Part shown: piece after piece, positions 30,021-40,980 of the stretch
Position numbering within the stretch: position 1 is the stretch's first letter
How the letters are laid out: the number at the start of each line of letters is the position of its first letter
Virus genome (UHGV): UHGV-0278542
From: a virus
Reading direction: 5' to 3' (one strand)
Length of the DNA: 44,996 nt
Notes under the pieces: generated by a model
The model's input: only the letters and a program-made list of their open reading frames with translations
Database searches by the model: none
What the model was told of the DNA's origin: nothing
Translations under genes and position numbers: made by a program

Positions 30021-30466
30021 GCAGCCTTCCCTTTTCGTTGTGACCATTCATACTCTCGCCGGGAGTCATCACTCCACCGCACGTTGCGCTCTGAGCCGAA
30101 CCAGAACATGATTTCGATAAGCTCAGTCATGCTGGCCTTTCGCATTTTGCTGGTACGCACGCCAAGCATGACAACGCCACCGTCGATACCAGGAACACTT
30201 CGTTGCTCCAGTTTTTTGGTCTTAAGCCACAGGGCAGTGAACAGGTCTTTCCAGTCTTCCGGTGCCAGCCGTTGACCATGCCATAGCACCTGACGCGAAA
30301 CATCGTTCAGCATCGGCCACATACGGTCATTCTGCGCTTTGCTGCGCTTGGGTTCTTTAACGTGGACTTCGTGGGGTGACTTGTCGTCGATGGGTAGTGA
30401 GAGAATGGCGTCTATGGCGTTATTTCTGATTGCTTCGTTGCGAAGCAGAAAAGTTTGTTTTGTCAT
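30017..30466 (-). CDS. ninB: Recombination protein NinB (Orf)
   Basis: 149-aa protein; ...AQNDRMWPMLNDVSRQVLWHGQRL...VRWSDDSRREYEWSQRKG resembles lambda NinB. Confidence 0.75.
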   Translation of the reverse strand: MTKQTFLLRNEAIRNNAIDAILSLPIDDKSPHEVHVKEPKRSKAQNDRMWPMLNDVSRQVLWHGQRLAPEDWKDLFTALWLKTKKLEQRSVPGIDGGVVMLGVRTSKMRKASMTELIEIMFWFGSERNVRWSDDSRREYEWSQRKGKAA

Positions 30467-30662
30467 GCTTCATCATCTCGTTCCATGCATCCATGCATTC
30501 TTGGTGGCTATTTCGCGTAACCTCTATCTTCGTTTTCTCACCTTCACACCAGTGGCGAAGGTAAACTTTCAGCACGATGTAACGCTGACCCGTCCAGTGC
30601 TTCGTTTCGTCGAATGTAGATATTCCGGAACCGCAAAATATGCACGGCTTTAACTCGCTCAT
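30420..30662 (-). CDS. Small Cys-containing protein, possibly Lar-type restriction alleviation
   Basis: ATG at 30662 with GGAG RBS; KPCIFCGS...HQEC Cys motif; overlaps the ninB start. Confidence 0.4.
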   Translation of the reverse strand: MSELKPCIFCGSGISTFDETKHWTGQRYIVLKVYLRHWCEGEKTKIEVTRNSHQECMDAWNEMMKHDKTNFSASQRSNQK

Positions 30663-30664
30663 AC

Positions 30665-30928
30665 TCACTCCTTCACTTTTATTCCAGCGGCGCGGATGGT
30701 CTCTACATCGCTTTCGTATTGCGATTCTGCACCTGAGTCATAGCCAATGTGATAATCACCGGGAAGTGGGCCTTTCTTTGGCTTTTGCAGCTCAATCTCG
30801 ATAGCTGCTCGCGATGCCTGCCACGCTTGCCAATACATCTCAACCATATTGGCGTATATTTTATTTTTAGGATCACATCCGGTGTAATTTTCAAACCATT
30901 CTTCAAACTGCTTTCTTGATTCGTCCAT
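30665..30928 (-). CDS. Hypothetical nin-region protein (87 aa)
   Basis: ORF with ATG at 30928, same-strand operon. Confidence 0.45.
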   Translation of the reverse strand: MDESRKQFEEWFENYTGCDPKNKIYANMVEMYWQAWQASRAAIEIELQKPKKGPLPGDYHIGYDSGAESQYESDVETIRAAGIKVKE

Positions 30929-30945
30929 CGATACTTACCCTCAGT

Positions 30946-31152
30946 TCAACTCACAAAACGCCACGCCATTTTTGCTACAGCTACAGGCGCAACACCGATA
31001 ATCACCCACAGGAAAATGCTACCGAAAAGCACACCCACCAGGTCTTTACCTTCGCCTACCAACCGGACAAAACTGCTGGCAACCACAATGAATGTCGCCA
31101 CCATCCACATAGCACCGAGAATCCTCAATGCAGAGAAAATTAACTCAGCCAC
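30946..31152 (-). CDS. Small membrane protein (68 aa, two hydrophobic segments), GTG start
   Basis: GTG at 31152 preceded by GGGGAGAG; strongly hydrophobic sequence. Confidence 0.4.
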   Translation of the reverse strand: MAELIFSALRILGAMWMVATFIVVASSFVRLVGEGKDLVGVLFGSIFLWVIIGVAPVAVAKMAWRFVS

Positions 31153-31167
31153 GATTTACTCTCCCCC

Positions 31168-31198
31168 AAATAAAAAGGCCTGCGATTACCAGCAGGCC
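31168..31198 (-). terminator. Intrinsic terminator in the nin region (tR2-like position, just after ren)
   Basis: Reverse-strand RNA ggccugcugguaaucgcaggccuuuuuauuu: 8-bp GC stem, 7-nt loop, U-tract. Confidence 0.6.
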
Positions 31199-31224
31199 TG
31201 TTATTAGCTCAGTGATGTAGATGG

Positions 31225-31515
31225 TCATTGCCTTACCTCCATAAGCGCCCTATTAATAAACGCCGTCATTGGATTTGCACATCCCCACCCCGTACCATCT
31301 GGATTTCTTTTAATTGGCTCCTTCTTCACTTTGCGTTTTGCATAAATAACCGTCTTCCACTTACGCTCAACAACACTCAAATGCCCTTGTTTCACCATAT
31401 GCCTTGCTGCTTGAGCGATTCTGTTATTTGGTATTCCGGTAATCAGTGCTAATTCATGTGGGGAGAATTGTTCATGAGTTTTCAGATATTCCAGGATGAT
31501 TTCTTTTCCAGTCAC
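31225..31515 (-). CDS. ren: Ren-like protein
   Basis: 96-aa ORF beginning MTGKEIILEYL... (GTG start), resembling my recollection of lambda Ren; immediately follows the replication genes. Confidence 0.5.
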   Translation of the reverse strand: MTGKEIILEYLKTHEQFSPHELALITGIPNNRIAQAARHMVKQGHLSVVERKWKTVIYAKRKVKKEPIKRNPDGTGWGCANPMTAFINRALMEVRQ

Positions 31516-32359: not shown

Positions 32360-33202
32360 TCACTCCTGCGCCCATGAAGGCATTTCAGTTTGTCCGTAAT
32401 CTTTGGTGGCAAAGTTTTCCTGCATAGCTCTATGCTGCGGCCTCGGTTGAGATTTCCCCTTTGGAGTCTTGGGCTCAAAAATCCCCTGCCAACCACTGGC
32501 GATGCTCTGGTTTATAATTTCTTCAGGTGTATATCCCTTCTCCAGACTTCTGCTTAGAACGTTGATAGCCTGAGTGACACTTTGCTTAGACTTGATCGAC
32601 TTACCTATCTCCTTGCGATAGGTAACCCACGACAACCATGTTTCTGCTGATAACCAATCAGGCAACTCTGTTTCTAGCGGGTCGAACTTCTGAGAAACTT
32701 TTTTGGGGGATATAGGGGGTTTATTAATATTTTCTTTTGTCTTTAAAGAATGTCTTTTGTGTGTCTCTAACTTCGAGACATTGAGTGTCTCTAATTTGGA
32801 GACATTCTTTGTCTCTAACTTCGAGACAAAGTTGCTAACTTGGAGACACTTGCTGAATTGCCACGCAGATACCTCACTGTTTACACCGATTTGATTTCCA
32901 TCCATAAACAGGCAATTCATTGAAATCAGTTCTTTTTTAGCCTTGTTAACATTCTGCCTTGACAGTCCTGTTAACTGAGCAATTTGCTCATCGGCTATTC
33001 GATCTGTTTTCTTATTGAATCCATATGTTTTCCGGACGTAGGCCAGCATAACTTTCAACTGGCGAGCGGTTAAATCGGCACTTGCGATAGCTTCCAGCAG
33101 CTCGTTAGCGAATCTGGTGTAACCATCATCGATATCAGCCACTCTTCGCTCCTGTTCAACAGGTTCACTCTTCGGCAGGTAAAATACTTCAGCCAGGCTC
33201 AT
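32360..33202 (-). CDS. O: Replication initiator O-like protein
   Basis: N-terminal RRVADIDDGYTRFANELLEA...RQLKVMLAYVRKTYG resembles lambda O; iterons lie inside the coding region; ATG at 33202 with GGAGG RBS. Confidence 0.7.
   Translation of the reverse strand: MSLAEVFYLPKSEPVEQERRVADIDDGYTRFANELLEAIASADLTARQLKVMLAYVRKTYGFNKKTDRIADEQIAQLTGLSRQNVNKAKKELISMNCLFMDGNQIGVNSEVSAWQFSKCLQVSNFVSKLETKNVSKLETLNVSKLETHKRHSLKTKENINKPPISPKKVSQKFDPLETELPDWLSAETWLSWVTYRKEIGKSIKSKQSVTQAINVLSRSLEKGYTPEEIINQSIASGWQGIFEPKTPKGKSQPRPQHRAMQENFATKDYGQTEMPSWAQE
32762..32848. repeat. Origin iterons: three 19-bp palindromic repeats (tgtctctaa(c/t)tt(c/g)gagaca) plus a partial fourth, next to an AT-rich stretch (about 32700-32760)
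   Basis: Direct repeats at 32762-32780, 32786-32804, 32810-32828 and partial 32833-32848, located inside the O-like gene as in lambda ori. Confidence 0.75.
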
Positions 33203-33833
33203 TTCCAACCTCCGCATCAAAGCATTGGGCTTCAAGAGACTTAACCATCACCACACTGCCATCTGTATTAATAACTATCGATGAGTTATATTTGCTTATC
33301 AGTTGCTTCGCGTAATCAATTCCGGCGCGAATAAGGAAATTTTTCACCGCAGGAAGATGACCAACTACACTACCCAGACCTTGCTCTATAAGCTCCTCAT
33401 TAAGATCAAGCTCATTTTCATGGCGAAAAGAAATGAATGAGTCGTAAATTGCGTATTCTGCCGTCTCGCCATTTCTTTCAGGGCCAACCAGCGCCCTTAT
33501 TTCATTTAGAGATTCAGAAAGCTCATTATCTTCAAGCTTGAAAAACTCTCGATTATCACTAAGCCTCTCTTTTGCAAAGGCTTTATGAATGAGTTTTTCA
33601 TCTGATGCGGGATTATTTGAATGAAAGGCAGCTATCACCTTAAATGGCTTAGGAACGCCAGTAGAGGCTGAAATTTCTTTAGCCCTAACTTCTGGTGAAT
33701 GCTTAGTCATCCCAATCTTATAAATTCCTGGCATGCACTCATTCGAAAGCACATAAACAAAGCCATTTGATTTAAAATCATCTGGCACCTTCATGCTCTT
33801 CAGAACCTGGAATTTGTCATTTTCGTATGTCAT
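33189..33833 (-). CDS. T5orf172/GIY-YIG-like domain protein (214 aa) inserted between cII and O
   Basis: N-terminal NGFVYVLSNECMPGIYKIGMTKHSPEVRAKEISASTGVPKPFKVIAAFHSNNPASDEKLIHKAFAKERLSDNREFFKL fits the T5orf172-type pattern; AGGAG RBS; 3' end overlaps the O start by 14 nt. Confidence 0.55.
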   Translation of the reverse strand: MTYENDKFQVLKSMKVPDDFKSNGFVYVLSNECMPGIYKIGMTKHSPEVRAKEISASTGVPKPFKVIAAFHSNNPASDEKLIHKAFAKERLSDNREFFKLEDNELSESLNEIRALVGPERNGETAEYAIYDSFISFRHENELDLNEELIEQGLGSVVGHLPAVKNFLIRAGIDYAKQLISKYNSSIVINTDGSVVMVKSLEAQCFDAEVGNEPG

Positions 33834-35279: not shown

Positions 35280-35429
35280 TGGGCAAGGTGTTCTGGTCGG
35301 CGCATAGCTGGTGAAAAAATTATTTAATGCGGTGTATTGGCTGATTGTAACCCCATGTAACATCTTGCCGTCACCATTTCGGTGGTTAGATTTTTAATAA
35401 AAAAAAACAAATGTATAGCAAGGTTTTTT

Positions 35430-35909
35430 ATGGATAAAATTAATTACCCACCCCTGTTTGAGCCAGGGTTCCATGACATGGATGAAGCTGGATTAAAATC
35501 GTATTGTGTCGATTGCTTTCCTTCATCATCCAGGCGAGGCATGCTATACTGTAATTTTATACAGCTACTCGAATCTATTCGAGAATTATCTGCTCAATAT
35601 GGCTGTTTTACAGAAATATGGGTTGATGGTTCATACACCACGTCTAAACCAGAGCCTGATGATATTGATATTTTGTTGGTATGTGACTATAGCAATATAA
35701 ACTCAATACCTGTCATGCTTCGGGGCCGCGTCGATAATTTGCTTGACCGAAACTACATCAAACAAAACTACAAAATTGATGTCCTACTACTCATGAAGAA
35801 TTTAGATGACCCTAACTATGATTATGAGTACTGGCGTAGTTACTGGCGCGGTTGGTTTGGTTTTGATCGCAGTGAAAACCCGAAAGGGTTAGTGAGGATT
35901 TTTTTATGA
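35430..35909 (+). CDS. Hypothetical protein with a minimal nucleotidyltransferase-like motif, first gene of a two-gene operon in the rexA position
   Basis: ATG at 35430 with AAGG RBS (track ORF starts at 35382); motif EIWVDGSYTTSKPEPDDIDILLV fits hG[GS]-x9-DxD; AT-rich; co-oriented with and downstream of cI. Confidence 0.55.
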   Translation: MDKINYPPLFEPGFHDMDEAGLKSYCVDCFPSSSRRGMLYCNFIQLLESIRELSAQYGCFTEIWVDGSYTTSKPEPDDIDILLVCDYSNINSIPVMLRGRVDNLLDRNYIKQNYKIDVLLLMKNLDDPNYDYEYWRSYWRGWFGFDRSENPKGLVRIFL

Positions 35910-36838
35910 ATGATAAATCAATGTTTAAAAATTGCGATAAACGCATTGATTTCATTCAAAAAGAAGTCGATGCAATGAAGCAAAACAAAACCAGGTCCTT
36001 TGCTGACATGCTTCTTTATCGCTCCATGGATTCTCATCTGAGCGATTTGAAGGCCGAAAAATTAAAGCAAGATAGTCGGCACCCACTTATCGATTTTTTT
36101 GAGCTGCGGCTGAAAGGCTCTGAGGTTGACTTTGGCTCTATTCCTTTAGAGCTGCTTGGGGCTATTTCAACAAATCTTGCAGCGCTAATACAAAGAGCAA
36201 CACACAAAATTGCCTCAGGCAAGGACTCAAAAAAAGTTCCCTACGACGTGAAAAGCTCCTTAAACCTCAGGCTGGCTGATTTATCCCCTGGGTCTACAAA
36301 ATTGGGCGTCACCTTCTCTACAGGAATAGCAGAATTAGTAGAAACAGTACCCAGCAAGGCTGTAAAAGGCATATTCGATTTGTTGTTAAGCGATGACGAC
36401 AACAACTTCATGAATCACGTCGCTGAAATTGGATACAATTCCACTGTAAGCCTTAAGAGAATCGTAGAGGAATGCGATAAACACAACTTAACATTTGATG
36501 CAAGTTGGACCGGTCCATTTAGTAATGGCACCAAGGTGGCAACTATTGACTCCAATAAAATTAAGTACTTGGTGAGTAGACTTACATCAACCATTTCATC
36601 CCCTCCCATTACTGAAACGGTTACAGGCGAACTGGTCGTTCTATCCAAATATGGGAAGCTGGAGCTTGATGTTGGTGGTGAACATTTAAAGGCTTCCTAT
36701 CCGATTGAAATGCTAGATTTAATACAAAAAAAACACAAGGTCGGACAGATTGTTTCTCTTTTAGTGGAGACTACTGAGATTCACAATGATCGCATAGGTC
36801 TGTACCGTAAAAACCATCTTGTTAAATCGGTTCTTTAA
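35906..36838 (+). CDS. Hypothetical protein (310 aa), second gene of the operon in the rexB position
   Basis: ATG at 35906 overlaps the upstream stop (ATGA), GTGAGGA RBS; no recognisable motif beyond a single Rx4H (YRSMDSH). Confidence 0.55.
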   Translation: MNDKSMFKNCDKRIDFIQKEVDAMKQNKTRSFADMLLYRSMDSHLSDLKAEKLKQDSRHPLIDFFELRLKGSEVDFGSIPLELLGAISTNLAALIQRATHKIASGKDSKKVPYDVKSSLNLRLADLSPGSTKLGVTFSTGIAELVETVPSKAVKGIFDLLLSDDDNNFMNHVAEIGYNSTVSLKRIVEECDKHNLTFDASWTGPFSNGTKVATIDSNKIKYLVSRLTSTISSPPITETVTGELVVLSKYGKLELDVGGEHLKASYPIEMLDLIQKKHKVGQIVSLLVETTEIHNDRIGLYRKNHLVKSVL

Positions 36839-37155: not shown

Positions 37156-37327
37156 AGCATTCAAAGCAGAAGGCTTTGGGGTGTGGTGAAGGGTTCATGG
37201 ATGGGAATATGTCGCACGTAAAGCGGCGAGGCCTGCGGAACTATTGCCGAATTGAAGTCGGCCGAAGCAGGTCGAAATGGGTCTCCCACCTACCACACCA
37301 CCAAAGCTAACTGACAGGAGAATCAAG

Positions 37328-37654
37328 ATGGATGCACAAACACGCCGCCGCGAACGTCGCGCAGAGAAACAGGCTCAATGGAAAGCAGCAAATCCCCTGT
37401 TGGTTGGGGTAAGCGCAAAACCAGTTAACCGCCCTATTCTCTCGCTGAATCGCAAACCGAAATCACGAGTAGAAAGCGCACTGAATCCGATAGACCTTAC
37501 GGTGCTGGCTGAATACCACGAACAGATTGAAAGCAACCTGCAACGTATTGAGCGCAAGAATCAGCGCACATGGTACAGCAAGCCACGCAGTGAAATGGGT
37601 GTGACTTGTGTTGGTCGCCAGAAAATGAAATTAGGCAGCAAACCACTTATTTGA
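37328..37654 (+). CDS. N: Antitermination protein N (lambda)
   Basis: MDAQTRRRERRAEKQAQWKAANPLLVGVSAKPVNRPILSLNRKPKSRVESALNPIDLTVLAEYHEQIESNLQRIERKNQRTWYSKPRSEMGVTCVGRQKMKLGSKPLI matches lambda N; AGGAG RBS. Confidence 0.92.
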   Translation: MDAQTRRRERRAEKQAQWKAANPLLVGVSAKPVNRPILSLNRKPKSRVESALNPIDLTVLAEYHEQIESNLQRIERKNQRTWYSKPRSEMGVTCVGRQKMKLGSKPLI

Positions 37655-40396: not shown

Positions 40397-40980
40397 GCAA
40401 CGTGATTTTTACTTATAACGAAGAAGCAGCACTGACCGCAGGGCAAGGTGGTTTTATTAACGAAACTGGCGCTCATATCATTACCATTACTGAAGCAGAA
40501 CTAAAGCAATCAGAAAAAGGAGCCAAATTTATTGAGTTTTCTGGCGAATCCGACGACGGACGTAAAATCCAATATCTTAGCGTCTGTGTTCAGAAAAATG
40601 ACGGAACGGAAAACAAATTTGGCGCAAATGTCGTTCACGCCATGATGGGGTGTGCCGGGATTGGACAATTAACGCAGCATATGGTTTCCGCCAGTAAATT
40701 TGTTGCTCCTGAGTTTCACGGAAAGAAAATCGGGTTAGTGCTACAGAAAGTATTAACCACAAACAAAAAGACTGGTGCAGACAGTTACCAGATGGAAATA
40801 CGCATCCCGTTTATTGCACAAACAGGTCAAACACTTAAAGAAAAGGCGGAAGGCAAGCAACCAGAAACTATCGCCAACATGGTTGCCAGCCTCAAAGATA
40901 AAGACAATCGCTCTAAAAACGTAAGCCAGAATCATGCAGATGATTATGGTTACAGCCAGAACGATTACCCTCCTTTCTGA
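40393..40980 (+). CDS. Hypothetical protein coupled to the ATPase gene, possibly an ssDNA-binding partner
   Basis: ATGA overlap with the ATPase gene; acidic C-terminus ending DYPPF resembles an SSB-type tail. Confidence 0.4.
   Translation: MSNVIFTYNEEAALTAGQGGFINETGAHIITITEAELKQSEKGAKFIEFSGESDDGRKIQYLSVCVQKNDGTENKFGANVVHAMMGCAGIGQLTQHMVSASKFVAPEFHGKKIGLVLQKVLTTNKKTGADSYQMEIRIPFIAQTGQTLKEKAEGKQPETIANMVASLKDKDNRSKNVSQNHADDYGYSQNDYPPF

Follow-up and report, generated by a model that had tools for sequence, protein, structure and literature searches.

Terminator tR2 within the ninA minigene of a lambda-immunity prophage: a short reading frame that probably bridges the terminator by translation

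A strong intrinsic terminator that is spanned by an open reading frame (ORF) of only 27 codons raises the question of what is being maintained at such a locus, i.e. the hairpin, the peptide or the act of translation. In the window analyzed here, a stretch of 44,996 nucleotides from the virus genome UHGV-0278542, a terminator of this kind lies between a ren-like gene and a gene for a 68-residue (68-aa) membrane protein. The initial annotation, made from the letters alone, saw either a purely regulatory hairpin with an artefactual peptide or a small membrane toxin-like peptide. Judging from the sequence, the locus is very probably the lambdoid early-right-operon terminator tR2 situated inside the gene ninA, a translated ORF that would bridge the terminator segment. 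The observation is real, but both elements, lambda tR2 and ninA, were already known, and it carries little weight as a discovery, tR2 being a classic model of termination and the ORF within it having had its name for decades. What has been gained is a fixed annotation of the window, as a prophage of lambda immunity that carries ninA, a tR2 under N control and a gene of PHROG 1165, together with comparative evidence that it is translation across tR2 that is conserved, rather than the peptide tail.

The hairpin occupies positions 31199-31176 and, like all features of the tR2/ninA locus, lies on the minus strand, where it was read straight from the letters of the window and its ORF list. Its GC-rich 8-bp stem, with six GC pairs, encloses an 8-nt loop (AGGCCTGC-TGGTAATC-GCAGGCCT) and is adjoined directly by the U-tract TTTTATTT (31175-31168), the run 3' of the stem reading TTTTTATTT. 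Among the calls of a terminator scan is this hairpin, with the same 8 pairs (6 GC); overall the scan discriminates poorly, with 10 sites in the window vs. 8.9 expected from shuffles. The folding energy of the hairpin is -15.1 kcal/mol as compared with -4.7 +/- 2.2 kcal/mol for mononucleotide shuffles, none of 1000 being as stable, and its pair probabilities were 0.91-1.0 when folded in 130 nt of context. An Rfam scan of the whole window returned no family at its gathering score.

From the ATG of ninA to the downstream motif GGGGGAGAG the window differs from lambda at one site in about 70 aligned positions, a synonymous C/T mismatch, so that hairpin, U-tract, the 30 nt upstream and GGGGGAGAG downstream are otherwise equal in the two. 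The matching lambda interval runs from the end of ren at 40570 to the start of ninB at 40644 and is the site of the terminator tR2. The record of HK620 carries the label 'terminator tR2' at the hairpin and that of P22 reads 'terminator ... similar to phage lambda', and a terminator is annotated at the same place in the records of mEp235 and L. The intrinsic terminator described earlier as tR2-like is, by its sequence, lambda tR2 itself. Megablast retrieved 411 phage records with the region and 421 with a 96-nt query, and of 5426 complete E. coli genomes 2053 (~38%) carry the 68-nt core, with at most 6 copies each, roughly 3000 in all, and an identity that is never less than 90%. Many papers use synthetic templates for transcription that contain the identical hairpin string. 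In vitro, lambda tR2, a standard model terminator, has an efficiency of ~53%, and its RNA release has been placed at U7/U8 (preprint 10.64898/2026.05.29.728758). The in vitro termination assay proposed with the initial annotation has in this way been answered, at least partly, in print for the identical lambda sequence, and termination by the copy in the window is predicted from that identity.

The ORF that spans the terminator is linked to its neighbours at both ends. Upstream, the ren-like gene (31515-31225 in the ORF list; 96 aa, winged-helix/MarR-like; PHROG 1687, 6e-40; PHROG 142, 'Ren-like', 3.5e-13) ends in a TGA (31227-31225) which shares bases with the ninA ATG (31228-31226) in the string ATGA at 31228-31225, and a GGAGG Shine-Dalgarno motif (SD) is located at 31240-31236, 7 nt 5' of the ATG. 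Downstream, the ninA TGA (31147-31145) falls within GTGGCTGA (31152-31145), which also holds the GTG start (31152-31150) of the 68-aa ORF, giving an overlap of 8 nt. The motif GGGGGAGAG (31167-31159) appears in the alignments as the conserved SD of the gene 3' of tR2; here it serves the GTG at 31152, and in lambda the ATG of ninB. The ORF coordinates, the ATGA overlap, GGAGG, the hairpin and the GTG-started ORF had all been given correctly for this strand, and the translational linkage seen upstream in the initial annotation extends to the downstream end. Homology between phages breaks off just past GGGGGAGAG, where the window has TAAATCGTG and the 68-aa gene whereas lambda has GGAAGTCATG and ninB. 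The window also departs from lambda further upstream, in that the product of its ren-like gene is a homologue with 43% identity to lambda Ren (58 aa compared) and its helicase loader is DnaC-like, not lambda P.

The 27-codon ORF (31228-31145), the translation of which is MTIYITELITGLLVIAGLFIWGRVNRG, is the named gene ninA. It matches PHROG 5907 over residues 1-26 (E = 1.3e-18), UniRef/NCBI has a 'NinA protein' from phage HK630 with exactly these 27 residues and gives the lambda form of 26 residues the same name, and ninA is annotated in the records of P22, phage 21, HK620 and L. The ninA genes of these four phages share with the window the start, the first 23 residues and the terminator within the gene. 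The tail of the peptide goes with the downstream module, being VNRG in the window, HK620 and mEp235, GKS in lambda and phage 21, GKT in P22, and none in L, which ends after RG. The initial annotation had seen the terminator and the coupling without recognizing the ORF as ninA, a gene that is also missing from PGAP annotation and from several phage records; current pipelines routinely skip ninA despite the frequency of its core in E. coli genomes given above. The NinA peptide matched no Pfam, NCBIfam or PADLOC family, and a full-text literature search with the peptide string found no paper. The phage L genome paper counts ninA among the non-essential lambda nin genes and recalls the ATGA stop-start chaining of the nin region, citing Kroger and Hobom 1982 (PMC8022706). 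The nin5 deletion takes out the lambda nin region including ninA, and the region is described as non-essential.

About 140 copies of ninA and tR2, taken from two IMG/VR DNA pattern scans and from phage and E. coli loci, were compared, with a sample of 125 used for counting the overlaps. In 122 of the 125 the stop of the upstream gene shares bases with the ninA ATG or directly adjoins it (ATGA in 87, TGATG in 22 and TAAATG in 13). Seven unrelated upstream contexts were encountered, each with a purine-rich SD-like motif of its own, and the homology breakpoint is at the ATG. At the other end the next gene begins 0-8 nt from the ninA stop in 111 of 125 copies, and this gene varies, being ninB, the 68-aa gene or one of several others. 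What stands above chance is the conservation of start, SD and overlaps among unrelated flanks, not the open frame itself. From the conserved overlaps we infer that it is translation across the terminator, rather than the peptide, that has been selected for.

The alternative that survives best is that NinA is a small single-pass membrane protein with a function of its own, which would modulate a membrane process of host or phage, the terminator merely sharing its sequence; we consider this unlikely. Residues 2-21 are hydrophobic (maximum 2.3 in a 15-residue Kyte-Doolittle window) and are followed by basic residues. Much of this hydrophobic core, however, is dictated by the terminator, because the stem codons give G, L, V and A and the U-run codons L, F and I: GGC CUG CUG GUA AUC GCA GGC CUU UUU AUU UGG translates to GLLVIAGLFIW. 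The 13 distinct variants seen in codons 2-10, outside the hairpin, comprise 8 synonymous changes (binomial p ~0.006) and five conservative replacements (T2N, I5V, I9V, I9M and T10A), a pattern in favour of selection on translation and also of a functional protein, as is the retention of start and SD in seven contexts. On the other hand, non-synonymous variants dominate 3' of the hairpin (8 of 11), where the tail varies with the downstream module. The stems are near-invariant, in keeping with selection on the structure; of the four stem variants in the ~140 copies, two are C-to-U transitions which preserve pairing as G-U and are synonymous too, the other two hitting the pair at the U-tract end. 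Loop variants are V14I and L13Q, the latter a mid-helix change present in 8 copies, and rare disrupted ninA alleles occur (W21stop; +1 or -1 frameshift). Together with the dispensability of the nin region, as seen in the nin5 deletion, and the lack of any Pfam, NCBIfam or PADLOC family, the variable tail, L13Q and the disrupted alleles speak against a membrane protein, and a function of the NinA peptide is possible but unsupported.

Two further kinds of allele bear both on the bridging of tR2 and on the peptide. In one, the N-terminus MTIYITELITG is followed by a different hairpin and U-tract (GGGGCTATTTACACAGTAGCCC-TTTTTT, -12.6 kcal/mol), and a relative carries a compensatory T-A to C-G change (GGCCACTTACACAGTGGCC, -14.1 kcal/mol). 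The ninA ORF is open through the alternative hairpin in each case, which points to selection on the terminator structure here and on an ORF spanning it; the peptide is also hydrophobic over the matching stretch, which would also suit a membrane protein. In the other kind of allele, found in HK022, Stx2 phage 1717 and several contigs, a gene for a 203-aa HNH endonuclease is placed between ninA codon 11 and the hairpin. The truncated ninA goes on as a 34-aa hydrophobic ORF, MTIYITELIAGLSLLMVLTVYIIKYILYANKKTN, which overlaps the HNH start by 23 nt, and the HNH stop (TAA) immediately abuts the tR2 hairpin. Thus the terminator was retained when ninA was split, and a short bridging ORF was retained at the upstream junction. 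That the N-terminus runs into a hydrophobic stretch free of hairpin constraint would favour a membrane protein, whereas the swapping of the C-terminal half of NinA in viable phages such as HK022 argues against it.

As regards the occurrence of these alleles, the alternative hairpins are carried by the IMG/VR contigs L132, L134, L136, L140, L142 and L138; in L138 the compensatory stem change is accompanied by a 1-nt shift, and the ORF stays open in frame beyond the next ATG as far as the sequence was read. The allele with the HNH insertion lies within 211-930 of the HK022 locus (L150) and is also present in L151, L013, L089 and L121.

Published experiments bear directly on the translation of ninA. 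Li et al. put lambda tR2 with its native 48 nt upstream into a reporter operon and pointed out that this piece contains the NinA initiation site, citing Kroger and Hobom 1982 and a lambda ribosome-profiling study (PMC4824070). Transcripts terminated at tR2 are without a stop codon for the NinA ORF, and the upstream reporter dropped to about half; mutation of the NinA ribosome binding site (RBS) or AUG restored its expression about two-fold, and the initiation site is therefore 'not weak' (PMC4824070). The check on small-ORF translation proposed with the initial annotation has in this respect been anticipated, the NinA initiation site having been shown to be active by the RBS and AUG mutations (PMC4824070). 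Translation of ninA cut tR2 efficiency by just ~10%, which the authors ascribe to the failure of ribosomes to reach RNA polymerase in the first 100 nt of an ORF (PMC4824070). By comparison, tR2 was strongly repressed if a translated gene ended only a few bases upstream (PMC4824070), and the 30-nt N-terminal segment of ninA may therefore also be a spacer after the ren stop.

The lambda pR promoter, cro, nutR and the N-like and Q-like genes of the window put tR2 in its canonical N-controlled position. The pR promoter (TTGACT-17-GATAAT; 34518-34490, minus strand; promoter scan and lambda comparison) feeds the operon that is interrupted by tR2, and nutR, the N loading site, is found by lambda comparison at 34257-34226 (minus) with boxA CGCTCTTA and boxB GCCCTGAAAAAGGGC. 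The gene for an N-like antiterminator is on the plus strand (37277-37654; PHROG 271, 1.4e-27), and that for a Q-like late antiterminator (27598-26975, minus; PHROG 127, 6.6e-83) lies downstream of tR2 and the nin genes. The window also codes for cro, a CI-type repressor, CII, O and the DnaC-like loader, and tR2 stands, as in lambda, with the replication and ren genes upstream of it and the nin genes and Q downstream. In lambda, RNA polymerase modified by N overrides tR2. Transcripts from pR would pass cro, cII, the replication genes and the ren-like gene; where polymerase has not been modified by N at nutR, the 8-bp hairpin would form and the RNA would be released in the U-tract, and N-modified polymerase would continue into the nin genes and Q. 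The gene ninA, chained at both ends, would be translated and would bridge the ~80-nt terminator segment of the nin 'chain of interlinked genes', ribosomes being handed on from the ren-like gene to the 68-aa gene, which is the first of the nin genes here and whose SD GGGGGAGAG comes right after the U-tract.

It is also possible, though rather doubtful, that ninA is kept for the effect of its translation on the RNA, ribosomes on tR2 transcripts made without N running off a 3' end that has no stop codon. Terminated early transcripts would then be non-stop mRNA for tmRNA and RNase R, and the output of the replication genes would be lowered until N acts. On read-through transcripts, translation of ninA would melt the hairpin and bring ribosomes to the first nin gene.

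Several observations weigh against the reading that ninA has been selected to bridge tR2 by translation. The synonymous excess in codons 2-10 is weak and supportive only, because an out-of-frame control of the same test scored similarly (6 of 12), and since the homologues are at least ~90% identical in DNA it hangs on 13 variants. The DNA conservation could in part reflect recombination spreading one junction allele, not selection on translation. In HK022-type phages the hairpin follows directly after the HNH stop with no upstream frame carried across, and the one frame that spans it starts with GTG and lacks a clear SD, so that bridging is not obligatory. SF11, ST-29 and Oslo owe their lower identity to the downstream module, not to ninA or tR2, and with no divergent ninA copies among these three a robust dN/dS estimate is impossible.

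That the ninA ORF is instead an untranslated by-product of hairpin and U-run, the terminator alone being functional, appears improbable. In its favour, open frames of 27 codons are no rarity, the hairpin itself can be read through in a second frame too, ninA is left out by PGAP and several phage records, and the HK022-type hairpin is present without the ninA N-terminus before it. Against this, the ATG, the SD-like motif and the overlap are kept in seven unrelated contexts with the breakpoint exactly at the ATG, the stop meets the start of several different downstream genes, and mutation of the NinA RBS or AUG altered reporter output in vivo (PMC4824070). The suggestion in the initial annotation that the peptide is purely an artefact is unlikely in view of the same conserved SD, ATG and overlaps.

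Leader attenuators of the pyrBI type, which are discussed in PMC4824070, carry a terminator within a short ORF, and tR2 resembles them as an intrinsic terminator ~30 nt past the start codon of such an ORF, while the short hydrophobic NinA with its basic tail might recall a toxin. A type I toxin-like peptide, or a leader peptide whose translation governs tR2 formation, is nevertheless very improbable: the attenuator is rejected because no antiterminator structure competes with the terminator stem (the upstream RNA leaves the 5' arm unpaired, and the stem pairs have the high probabilities given above), ninA translation shifts tR2 efficiency just ~10% (PMC4824070) and control is by N, not by ribosome position; the toxin-like peptide is rejected because no promoter-like site was called on either strand within several hundred bases (including 31100-31300) and no defence or toxin family was matched in PADLOC, and the HNH gene splits ninA in viable phages (HK022). 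For a type I toxin-antitoxin system, an antisense or overlapping small RNA was looked for, with no promoter call near 31100-31300 on either strand and no Rfam family in the window.

The gene to which ninA would hand its ribosomes (31152-30946, minus strand) encodes the 68-aa protein with two predicted helices and begins with GTG. It matches PHROG 1165 over residues 1-68 of 68 (E = 7.4e-37) and falls among 199 database clusters, nearly all of 68 aa and all named 'hypothetical protein', with Escherichia or Salmonella as the named organisms and 85-100% identity among the database clusters listed. Because conservation runs from residue 1, the GTG start is supported, and the two-helix membrane topology proposed earlier finds support in hydropathy, where VGEGKD lies between two hydrophobic stretches, and in an AlphaFold2 model of a helical hairpin (helices 2-33 and 38-67, mean pLDDT 88.7). 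The gene directly follows ninA/tR2 in 35 of the 125 copies, with the same GTGGCTGA overlap, and is thus a common occupant of the first nin slot that belongs to a known hypothetical family. Its PHROG 1165 relatives include mEpX1 gp49, Stx2-86 gp69 and ST64T orf69, and the copy in the window has no distinctive feature. Annotation of the gene is uneven: in mEp235 (L002, 1625-1783) an internal ATG was chosen, giving 52 aa, and in HK620 (L006, 684-891) the interval is blank.

A scan of genome contigs with the 3' arm and U-tract added no diversity, most of the other matches being unrelated terminators that share the 18-mer, and true homologues were found just in Escherichia or in probably contaminated metagenome-assembled genomes. 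At least 14 hits in contigs of unrelated taxa (Pseudomonas, Oceanobacillus, Bradyrhizobium, Psychrobacter, Shewanella, Nocardioides and others; among them L153, L163, L166, L168, L169, L171, L178, L181, L184, L187, L194, L196 and L204) are 100% lambda around tR2; their titles give mostly ~1-fold coverage, and 2.5- and 9.6-fold in two, and they are most likely lambda DNA contamination of the assemblies. In E. coli 2013C-3250 (L149, 1386-2012) an extra 89-aa gene stands after the same ren-like gene, at the same ATGA junction. The end of this gene gives ninA a new SD and ATGA, and RefSeq (PGAP) leaves a gap at 1942-2012 without ninA annotation.

Elsewhere in the window, two genes at 35382-36838 (plus strand) occupy the post-cI slot where lambda has rexA and rexB. 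The first encodes 175 aa with Pfam DUF6932 and matches PADLOC PDC-M63A (2e-41), the second encodes 310 aa and matches PDC-M63B (7.5e-45), and the two make up a candidate defence system. A 214-aa ORF (33189-33833, minus strand) between cII and the O-like gene contains a T5orf172/MUG113 domain; its PADLOC matches are the candidates PDC-S57 (4.5e-29) and PD-Lambda-1. After the 68-aa gene, the interval 30420-30928 (minus strand) holds an 87-aa ORF (PHROG 343) and an 82-aa Lar-like restriction-alleviation ORF, which matches PHROG 599 (1e-7) and scores under the Pfam and NCBIfam cut-offs. NinB comes next and is followed by a 184-aa ORF; annotations of related E. coli prophages name its counterpart a phage N-6-adenine methyltransferase.

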